Below are positions 2,828-9,681 of a stretch of 60,282 bases of DNA, in pieces. Each line of letters begins with the position of its first letter. The first letter of the stretch is position 1. The notes beneath the pieces are model-generated. The model saw only the letters and a list, made by a program, of their open reading frames with translations, was not told the DNA's origin and did not search any database. Both the position numbers and the translations under genes were made by a program. Origin of the DNA: Burkholderiales bacterium (GTDB lineage: Bacteria; Pseudomonadota; Gammaproteobacteria; Burkholderiales; Usitatibacteraceae); the NCBI GenBank assembly GCA_031375445.1, contig JANMHV010000458.1, positions 1 to 60,282 on the forward strand, given 5' to 3'.

Positions 2828-3286
2828 TCAGTCCAGCATCTCCGGGTTCATCACCGCCTTCAATACCGTTTCGGCCTTGCCCTCGCGCAGTCGCGTCGCG
2901 AACCACCACGCCGCTCCCTTGCGGACGGCCACATCCCCCACCCCCCCGCCCATCAGCCGCGCCGCCACCCGGCCCAGGGTGGGTTGGTGTCCGACCACCA
3001 GCACGCGCTCGGCGTCGGGCCAGCCCGCAGCGTGCAGCAGTCGCCCCTCGTCGGAGCCGGTGCCCACCTCCGGCGTGACCTGCCCCTCGAGGCCCAGGGC
3101 TTCGAGGGTCTGGCGCGCGCGCACCGCCGGGGAGACCAGCACGCGCCAGTCGCCTTCGAGGCGCGGGAGGAGCCACGCCGACATGCGCTCGGCCTGACGC
3201 AGGCCCTTGCGGGTCAGGGTTCGCTGGGCGTCGTCGATGCCGATGCCGTCTTCAGCATCGGCGTGGCGCCAGAGGATGAGGTCCAT
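2828..3286 (-). CDS. sixA: SixA-like phosphohistidine phosphatase
   Basis: MDLILWRHADAED, SPAVRARQT, VVGHQP; last 152 aa of the long ORF 2828..6271. Confidence 0.85.
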   Translation of the reverse strand: MDLILWRHADAEDGIGIDDAQRTLTRKGLRQAERMSAWLLPRLEGDWRVLVSPAVRARQTLEALGLEGQVTPEVGTGSDEGRLLHAAGWPDAERVLVVGHQPTLGRVAARLMGGGVGDVAVRKGAAWWFATRLREGKAETVLKAVMNPEMLD

Positions 3287-3347
3287 GGCGGAATCGGGGG
3301 GCATGACGGTTGGACCGTAGTTTGCGCCGTCGGTGCCCTGGAAGGCC

Positions 3348-3487
3348 TTGCGCCCGGGCGAGGGCCGCGGTCCTTGATCGAGCCGGCCGTGCTCACCAGC
3401 GGAGGGCGGGATGAGGTAGCTATTCGGGCGGCGATCCCGCGGGCATCTGTCGACGGCCTCTCGATCAAGGACCGCAAGGCCCTTCCC
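3348..3487 (+). repeat. Structured ~140-nt element, copy 1 (candidate ncRNA or ssDNA hairpin)
   Basis: Perfect 16-bp stem 3367-3382/3460-3475 plus flanking and inner helices; alignable end to end with the reverse complement of 3529-3671. Confidence 0.75.
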
Positions 3488-3528
3488 GAGCTTCCTCCGC
3501 CCATGTCGACCGTCACTGCTTCGTAAAG

Positions 3529-3671
3529 GGGAGTGGCCTTGGCGGACCTGATCGAAAGGCCGCTGACGGTCGCTCGCAGGATCGATAGCCAAATGACCTG
3601 ATCCTTTCCCGCCCACCGCTGGTTCGTAGCGGCCGACTCGATCAGGTCCGCCGGCCTCCGCCCGGGCGCAA
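3529..3671 (-). repeat. Structured ~140-nt element, copy 2 (inverted relative to copy 1)
   Basis: Perfect 15-bp stem 3541-3555/3638-3652; shares TTGCGCCCGGGCG, TGATCGAG, ACCAGCGGnGGGCGGGA and AAGGCC with copy 1. Confidence 0.75.
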
Positions 3672-3684
3672 AACAAACGGGTTA

Positions 3685-4611
3685 CTACTCCGGCCCCGCC
3701 TCCGGGAGCGACCGCGGGTTCCGCGCCGTGAGCGCAATCCCCGCCAGGATCAACCCGATCCCCACCAGGTGATACGCGTAGATCCGCTCGTCGAGGAACA
3801 GCCACGCGAGCAGGCTCCCGAACGCGGGCATGAGGTGCACGAAGATCCCGGCGCGGTTGGAACCCACCTCCGCCACCCCGCGATTCCAGAAGATGTAGCC
3901 CACGAACGAGGGAAAGATCCCGACGTAGAGCATCGCGCCGATCGTGGCCGGCGTGATCGCGACGCGCCCCTCGAAGAACAGCATCTCGATCACGAAGAGC
4001 GGCAGCAGCAGGCAGAGCCCGACGACGCCGCAGCAGGTGAGCATCGCGAGGCCGGGTATCCCGGCGGGCTTCAAACGCAGGAACACCGTATAGGCGGCCC
4101 AGAAGATCATCCCCACCAGCAGGATGAGATCCCCGCGGTTGAGCGAAAGGGTCGCCAGCACCGCCGGGTCGCCGCGCAACAGGATCGTGAACACTCCCGC
4201 CACGGAGATCGCGACTCCCACCGCCTGCAGCCGCGTGATGGTGTCGCGGTAGATGGCCCACCCCAGCAAGATGATGAGCACCGGGATGGCGCTGTTCAGC
4301 ATCACGCCGTTGGTCGCGGTGGTGTACTGCAACCCCACGTACGAGAAGGCGTTGTGGAGCCCCGTGCCCCAGAAACCCAGCCACGCGATGCGTTTCGCAT
4401 TGGCGCGGATCGCAGCGCGGTGCGCGCGGATCTGCGGCCATGCGAAGGGCAGCATCACGGCCACCGCCACCAACCAGCGGAAGAAGGTGAGCGCCAGGGG
4501 AGAGACGATCCCGACCAGCGCTTTTCCGATCACCCAGTTGATCGACCAGAAGAGCGAGGTGAGCGTGAGGAGCAGGTACGGCGAGGGGTGGAACGGGACG
4601 CGGCTCGTCAT
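3685..4611 (-). CDS. DMT/EamA family transporter
   Basis: About 10 TM segments in two EamA repeats; GLQYTTATN and GVAEVGSNRAG motifs. Confidence 0.9.
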   Translation of the reverse strand: MTSRVPFHPSPYLLLTLTSLFWSINWVIGKALVGIVSPLALTFFRWLVAVAVMLPFAWPQIRAHRAAIRANAKRIAWLGFWGTGLHNAFSYVGLQYTTATNGVMLNSAIPVLIILLGWAIYRDTITRLQAVGVAISVAGVFTILLRGDPAVLATLSLNRGDLILLVGMIFWAAYTVFLRLKPAGIPGLAMLTCCGVVGLCLLLPLFVIEMLFFEGRVAITPATIGAMLYVGIFPSFVGYIFWNRGVAEVGSNRAGIFVHLMPAFGSLLAWLFLDERIYAYHLVGIGLILAGIALTARNPRSLPEAGPE

Positions 4612-8785: not shown

Positions 8786-8810
8786 GAGGTCACACTACGT
8801 CAACAGCTTC

Positions 8811-8968
8811 AACACGAAGGACACGAAGGTACACAAAGGTCCACAAAGGAAAACGGAACCGGTCGAGAGTACTGCTGCCACCATCGCGAACTCCCGGCAG
8901 TCTCACGAACCTCAAGCCGTCATTGCTTTCCTTTGTGGACCTTTGTGTACCTTCGTGTCCTTCGTGTT
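8811..8968. repeat. Long palindromic element A (42-bp perfect inverted arms, 74-nt spacer)
   Basis: 8811-8852 AACACGAAGGACACGAAGGTACACAAAGGTCCACAAAGGAAA is the exact reverse complement of 8927-8968. Confidence 0.95.
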
Positions 8969-8994
8969 TAACCCCACAGCCCGTACCCACGCGC

Positions 8995-9681
8995 TCAGTC
9001 CTCATGCGTGATCGCCCCGGCGGAAATGTGGATCCGCCGGTCGCAACGCTTCGCCAGGTCCACATCGTGCGTCACCAGCACCAGCGTCGTCCCGCTCTCT
9101 CGGTTCATCTTGAACAGCAACTCGATGATGTGCTCTCCGGTGACCGAATCGAGGTTGCCCGTGGGCTCGTCGGCGAAGAGCAGCCGCGGCTCGGTCACGA
9201 AAGCCCGCGCCACCGCCACGCGCTGCTGCTCGCCCCCGGAGAGCTGGCGCGGGTAGTGGCCGAGGCGCTCGCCCAGGCCCACGCGCTCGAGCACCGCGCG
9301 GGCACGGCCCGACGCGTCGCCCCCGCCGTTCAATTCCAGGGGCAGCATCACGTTCTCCAGCGCGGTGAGCGCCGGCAAAAGCTGGAACGACTGGAACACG
9401 AAGCCCACCATCTGCCCGCGCAGGCGCGCCCGGCCATCCTCGTTCAGCGCGAACAGGTCCTCGCCCGCGATCGCCACCGTACCCGAAGACGGAACGTCGA
9501 GCCCGGCCAGCAATCCCAGCAGGGTGGACTTGCCCGAACCGGAGGCGCCAAGGATCGCCACCGACTCGCCGGCGCGCACCTCGAAGGCCGCGTCCCGTAC
9601 GATCGTCAGCACGTGGTCCGGAGTCTCGACTTGTTTGGTGAGGCCCTGAGCCTTCACAATCACCTGTTCCACCGCGCCCAT
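8995..9681 (-). CDS. ybbA: ABC transporter ATP-binding protein, YbbA-like
   Basis: GASGSGKST, LSGGEQQRVA, FADEPTGNLD; divergent from tesA as in the conserved tesA-ybbA-ybbP locus. Confidence 0.9.
   Translation of the reverse strand: MGAVEQVIVKAQGLTKQVETPDHVLTIVRDAAFEVRAGESVAILGASGSGKSTLLGLLAGLDVPSSGTVAIAGEDLFALNEDGRARLRGQMVGFVFQSFQLLPALTALENVMLPLELNGGGDASGRARAVLERVGLGERLGHYPRQLSGGEQQRVAVARAFVTEPRLLFADEPTGNLDSVTGEHIIELLFKMNRESGTTLVLVTHDVDLAKRCDRRIHISAGAITHED

Follow-up and report, generated by a model that had tools for sequence, protein, structure and literature searches.

The pair of inverted rod-like sequences between the sixA-like and DMT genes of the window, the 60,282-nucleotide stretch analyzed here, is one shortened copy of a dispersed, gene-less intergenic repeat and not a unique ncRNA pair. 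The repeat is best taken as mobile DNA of a palindromic, non-autonomous kind, and not as a newly found ncRNA of the host. Its copies have spread, inserted between genes, changed in ways that keep their structure, and exchanged arms. In the fuller reading that we prefer and consider reasonably likely, the window holds a deleted copy of a two-armed element that is likely mobile as single-stranded DNA, and its long hairpins (rods) would be the sites recognized by a nicking enzyme that acts in trans and is perhaps of the HUH type.

The original prediction placed two inverted copies of about 140 nt at 3348-3487 (+) and 3529-3671 (-), and both sit there, 75% identical over 145 alignment columns, in the gap between the stop of the DMT gene (3685) and the start of the SixA-like gene (3286). 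The flanking genes encode EamA/DMT and histidine-phosphatase (SixA-like) domains. The features of the region are as follows.

3345-3674, no strand assigned: whole element, an internally deleted copy with two inverted arms, G-Y-T end bases included
3348-3491, + strand: rod hairpin of the left arm, with a foot stem (3352-3358/3485-3491), a basal stem (3367-3382/3460-3475), an AA bulge at 3476-3477 and a variable interior
3492-3537, + strand: linker of the left arm, followed by the opening bases of its inner unit; this copy has lost the GCGNAGC unit and the centre
3535-3671, - strand: rod hairpin of the right arm, with a basal stem (3541-3555/3638-3652) and an AA bulge at 3539-3540 (TT on the + strand); its 3' foot is lost
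3535-3537, no strand assigned: GGC overlap where the deletion has joined the two arms, seen in the sequence
3685-4611, - strand: EamA/DMT transporter gene of the host, its stop 13 nt from the right end of the element
2828-3286, - strand: SixA-like histidine phosphatase gene of the host, 4-171 nt after DMT in most congeners

The main stems, said to differ in sequence and still pair perfectly, do so over 16 bp (3367-3382/3460-3475) and 15 bp (3541-3555/3638-3652). Outer inverted ends of 13 nt are present as well. Of the right copy as first bounded, positions 3529-3537 belong to the left arm, whose inner unit begins there, and do not form a 3' foot for the right rod. Element ends reach three bases further out, as G-Y-T (24, 32 and 26 of 32 ends). 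The claimed conservation of the AA bulge held in 80 of 96 rows gathered without requiring it, some of these rows being reverse readings; the ACCAGCGGnGGGCGGGA internal motif, also claimed as conserved, instead ranks among the more variable parts across 23 arms. On folding, all four strands beat 200 of 200 shuffles (z -3.6 to -4.5). The window copy measures 324 bp between its TTGCG ends, against 574 bp for the copy in contig C272 of the same draft genome (G000). About 250 bp were deleted from it, joining the right arm to the left arm's inner unit at the GGC overlap. A public DNA contig, from a run that may have the same source as the window, spans 3361-4000 with one difference; it bridges this joint, indicating that the joint is not an assembly error. 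Among the sequencing runs listed as holding the sequence, none was an RNA run.

G000 contains 36 matching regions, 23 of which lie at contig ends, so that some are halves of one locus. The window arms themselves match about a dozen more loci in G000 and about as many in a congener, G006. Intact copies are imperfect palindromes of 480-630 bp, built as rod, linker, one or two short inner units and centre, followed by the same parts in reverse order. Sizes range from 125 to 630 bp overall, and internal deletion is frequent. Rods fall into length classes of 106-108, 117-122, 140-142 and about 175 nt. Their feet and terminal bases differ between subfamilies; the internal bulges, TCGA and CAAG are kept. 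The inner unit of these copies also occurs in G000 joined to three or more other outer rods, one of which has the TCGA/CCGA and CAAG features and another of which is tied in through the inner unit only. Five loci (L283, L281, L295, L284 and L199) have longer rods of about 175-205 nt, in which an interior module with CAACCACC at its end is present as two tandem copies; the AA bulge is missing from most of these rods, and some of them are single arms. At G000:C341:2250-2535 and at L289, IS-like sequence, its family assigned by eye, takes the place of one element half.

A covariance-model search, proposed as a check of the original prediction, was run with 23 arms and found divergent rods in six more congeners. 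A second model built from 53 rods (R2) had matches in 19 of 46 genus genomes, with 1-22 matches each (18 of 45 without the unpublished G001). R2 found nothing in 140 other genomes of the order or in three complete genomes of the genus, and a single weak match among 78 genomes from other genera of the family. Copy number ran from 0 to over 20 per genome, as counted with strict filters in genomes of which many are incomplete. BLAST-type searches recovered G000 and G006 only, and covariance models were needed for the remaining genomes. A scan of metagenomes with a pattern derived from the divergent rods gave 51 matches, 29 of which pair at 13-15 of the 15 positions left free by the pattern. The exact inner motif was absent from 400 other genomes of the order, from metagenomes and from viral contigs; in the species collection it occurred at 55 loci, where the true elements repeat the G006 sequence and the others read as chance coding matches. 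Plasmid and phage collections had no match to one full-length element. The original prediction could not assign the pair to SRP, 6S, tRNA, Y RNA, attC or a riboswitch, and neither the window nor 26 related loci matched Rfam, apart from sub-threshold miRNA-hairpin matches. The repeat family is apparently undescribed so far; we found no description of it in the freely available literature searched.

The DMT-sixA gap is 401 nt in G000 and 474 nt in G006, but only 4-171 nt in 23 of 27 other congeners (G001 left out), the other four being three loci without DMT and one with a 1.3-kb gap. This is the empty site for which a search had been suggested, and it indicates that the element is inserted into a formerly tight junction. 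Genes next to other copies, likewise proposed for inspection, are varied housekeeping genes and not cassettes. Copies are almost only extragenic. Crude gene calls gave a neighbour for 47 element sides, and in 24 of these a stop codon was no more than 35 nt away. Target duplication was not detected (mean 2.1 nt versus 1.8 nt permuted, p 0.11, 16 elements, two of them with a mis-set boundary); old copies lose target-site direct repeats. The longest guide-like match between rod interior and outer flank was no better than permuted (6.27 versus 6.25, p 0.46, 71 rods). Tandem scars of the rod foot, at least 9 nt long, precede 8 of 71 rods. The element adjoins the same kinase gene in distant congeners (G000:C71 and G034:C13, locus L198), and different Y1 genes occupy one common site in G000:C474 and G006:C571/C565; together these two sites suggest insertion hot spots. 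A CCCTCTCCC-type palindrome abuts several rod ends, at the outer flanks of G000:C56, C142, C349, C467 and G006:C583.

G006 is the closest relative of G000 (SixA 93%, flanks 86-90% alike) and allowed us to follow individual sites. At 18 G006 loci, the corresponding G000 site had an element or remnant in 12 cases and none in two, and four gave no call. Among six same-side arm pairs from these sites, two look orthologous (89% over only 66 nt; 87%), whereas the other four are 64-72% alike, no closer than random pairs (74%). At the DMT-sixA site, the SixA-side arm was kept between the two genomes and the DMT-side arm was replaced by another subtype. One further site carries different rod families in G000 and G006, and G006 also has a hybrid of two families. 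The 10-30 nt beyond the element ends differ wholly between G000 and G006, and in contigs from another study 8 of the 11 bases at 3674-3684 differ. Two arms from the same genome are, on average, only about 75% alike, and the arm tree clusters by species (6 label changes versus 9.5 shuffled). The repeat offers a case of arm-by-arm turnover at fixed chromosomal sites that can be traced in sister genomes. In G006:C1, two arms lie 8.4 kb apart, and no transposase-like ORF was recognized by eye between them.

The original prediction also claimed selection on a folded single strand, and covariation with kept bulges supports it. In 53 rods, 94.9% of cells were paired, compared with 38-54% in slid controls; 25 of 29 pairs show both-side changes, and both-side changes outnumber one-side G-U changes by 343 to 3, although the copies are related and these counts are not independent events. 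In the basal 18 bp of 72 rods, 1264 of 1296 cells were Watson-Crick, with 4 G-T, 11 A-C and 17 other; this pairing rate is inflated, since the rods had been picked for an AA bulge and for pairing at 16 or more of 18 positions. The filter ranked G-T higher than A-C, however, and so did not create the scarcity of G-T. Host tRNA stems, for comparison, had 38 G-T and 8 A-C among 470 pairs. Neighbouring bases change around the AA bulge, CAAG and TCGA, which themselves are kept. The pattern looks like a protein-read DNA hairpin rather than a typical RNA helix, and the rod hairpin is probably read as DNA. Template-switch repair of quasi-palindromes can give exact pairing without selection, according to PMC3820800. 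Such repair should erase the bulges too; since they are kept, we infer selection by a factor that reads the DNA hairpin. In the inner GCGNAGC of G000 and G006, all five changes across 49 element copies fall at N (6 of 55 rows were non-element and were dropped); PMC13037366 describes GCGNAGC as a stable DNA mini-hairpin motif. As a family-wide signal it was rejected (11 of 70 other arms versus 9.9 expected).

No candidate enzyme gene stood beside any copy inspected, and neither excised nor circular forms of the element were seen. Among 35 loci of Y1/RAYT-like genes, none was flanked by a full rod, and one weak partial match was seen (E 0.0013). Y1 genes are present in 40 of the 46 genus genomes, both where the element occurs and where it does not, and so do not track it. 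Three Y1/RAYT-like genes in G000 (C313:16452-17264, C169:5899-6225 and C474:22827-23525) have their own GGGG(A/T)CAG-type terminal repeats; the terminal repeats of the Y1 genes seen match the TIRYT pattern given in PMC6006769. A doublet of this repeat is inserted inside a rod in L099. No rod adjoins any IS110, DUF559, GIY-YIG, HNH, TnpB, integrase or reverse-transcriptase gene. A search for Y2 transposases, as expected for an IS91/ISCR derivative, gave nothing in 46 genus genomes, and the control genomes were equally silent. The HUH motif scan and the low-GC3 list of G000 ORFs showed no link to rods, and no autonomous IS with the same ends was found among the searched families (Y1, Y2, IS110, DUF559 and TnpB). 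An autonomous copy may be missing from the draft assemblies, which break at the repeat and, in the case of G000, lack contigs shorter than 1.5 kb. At L127:1-180 (G000:C412), a DUF559 gene end is followed by CCCTCTCCC-type palindromes.

The earlier proposal of a mobile unit with sites for a trans-acting enzyme accordingly fared in two ways. Its first part is borne out by the dispersed copies, the empty site and the covariation with kept bulges, and we regard the status of mobile, non-autonomous repeat as close to certain; "HUH or recombinase" stays conjectural, the enzyme not having been found. HUH enzymes read DNA hairpins and leave no target duplication (PMC6006769). HUH chemistry is the best fit for these reasons, and involvement of such an enzyme is a possibility that we rate at somewhat below even. 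Each arm would fold once its strand is exposed by replication or transcription. A trans-acting enzyme may then read the basal stem, through the C-AA-G bulge and the TCGA next to a small pyrimidine loop, cut near the rod foot and rejoin the strand elsewhere, the transfer leaving short tandem scars of the rod foot. Older copies may be preferred landing sites, and we propose that one arm is for this reason replaced while the other stays. It is conceivable, if doubtful, that the family forms a separate class among gene-less mobile DNAs, in which the moving unit would be a single 200-300-nt arm with a ruler-length rod, homing into older copies and replacing one arm at a time by means of an enzyme outside the RAYT, IS200/605, IS91, IS110 and integron families. 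The covariance model and the kept bulges provide a defined substrate for finding the enzyme; if it is no known HUH protein, it would represent a new strand-transfer activity.

Several other readings were weighed against this one. A pair of host ncRNA genes, one of the readings offered in the original prediction, is not supported as the main reading, given a copy number of 0 to over 20, the lack of any match in three complete genus genomes, the replacement of arms at one site and the near absence of G-U in basal stems. The rods could still act as RNA, read-through transcripts from either side entering an arm in its better-folding orientation, so that a structured RNA would be the means by which the element spreads or the form in which it is selected. 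Rod interiors do fold better on one strand, from the outside inward (59 of 73 as RNA, 51 of 73 as DNA), and carry G-T pairs, the inner stem has G-U/G-C switches, copies sit just behind stop codons, and rod lengths fall in classes. We nevertheless consider this reading unlikely, given the 343 both-side versus 3 G-U changes in basal helices, the lack of any promoter-like or terminator-like site or any Rfam match, and the finding of reverse transcriptase in only one of five high-copy genomes, as a group II intron without a rod. Strong covariation with almost no G-U can stem from mobile DNA hairpins, which calls for caution in ncRNA discovery. Group II intron pieces with reverse transcriptase (L344-L346; G000:C364, C306 and C287) lie directly behind terminator-like hairpins, and one of them has an internal deletion.

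Movement as double-stranded DNA, in the manner of an ordinary MITE whose terminal inverted repeats are read by a DDE transposase, with rods kept perfect by neutral quasi-palindrome repair, would account for the 13-16-nt inverted ends, the 125-630-bp sizes, the frequent internal deletion, the intergenic sites and, through repair, the missing G-T and A-C pairs. It is quite unlikely, because target duplication is absent, terminal bases vary from one subfamily to another whereas TCGA, CAAG and the internal bulges are retained, and repair would be expected to erase the bulges as well. attC sites are long imperfect hairpins with extrahelical bases, read on one strand and marked by RYYYAAC and GTTRRRY boxes. 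The rods resemble them in hairpin form, and if they were attC-like folded sites for a tyrosine recombinase, arm exchange would be site-specific recombination between copies; such chemistry would go well with arm exchange and with a long hairpin that has extrahelical bases, and integron integrase exceeded the curated cut-off in three of five high-copy genomes. Yet none of 73 rods has the boxes, no rod lies in the integrase loci, and copies flank housekeeping genes, not cassettes, which makes this reading very unlikely; attC itself was rejected for the missing R boxes, the lack of cassette context and the inverted pairing. The integron integrase genes L348 (G000:C133), L349 and L347 occupy the same site in G000 and G006. 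Finally, the element might no longer move, old insertions being kept for a host role (mRNA 3' structure or chromosome folding) and arms being exchanged only by RecA gene conversion. The 12 of 18 sites common to the sister species, the failure to find an enzyme and the roughly 75% likeness of arms within a genome would fit, but a copy number that varies across the genus from none detected (as in three complete genomes) to over 20, the clustering of arms by species and the G006 sites that are empty in G000 leave it barely plausible.

In the reading that we favor, the repeat is REPIN-like. As in the REPINs and REP doublets described in 10.1101/2021.07.10.451892, PMC3116915 and PMC3733652, it consists of two inverted palindromic units around a variable spacer, extragenic, in many copies, non-autonomous and kept within a lineage. 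REPIN arms are 20-60-nt REPs and the whole is about 100 bp, whereas the arms here are 140-200-nt rods plus linker in an element of 480-630 bp. The GT(A/G)G foot of REPINs is missing at rods, a GTAG-containing short unit occurring only inside the G000/G006 subfamilies, and the cognate RAYT flanked by its own repeat has no counterpart among the 35 Y1 loci. Unlike in REPINs, single arms are exchanged. The REPIN idea would extend to repeats that fold more elaborately and whose arms are several times as long. Short inverted ends, lack of a gene, intergenic sites and many deleted copies recall prokaryotic MITEs of the ERIC, Correia, RUP and QMITE type (PMC10969869). Terminal inverted repeats of MITEs are about 4-30 bp, a range into which this gene-less element falls. 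It differs from MITEs in showing no target duplication, in being GC-rich and often above 500 bp when intact, in conserving internal structure and in having no related IS found. TnpA-Y1 class 3 and subclass 2.6 repeats and IS200/IS605 ends are also atypical DNA secondary structures dispersed over the genome, and a Y1 HUH enzyme reads them (PMC6006769); those repeats flank their gene, whereas the only Y1 genes seen here carry other terminal repeats. 6S RNA (RF00013), a rod of similar length with a central bubble, was rejected: the single host 6S gene lies at G000:C347:3384-3558, and its similarity to either arm is not beyond shuffles.

Elsewhere in the window, at 8790-9000, short CACGAAGG-type repeats lie between genes, and similar ones flank small low-GC3 genes elsewhere in G000. 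These CACGAAGG-type repeats are presumably linked to GxxExxY proteins.
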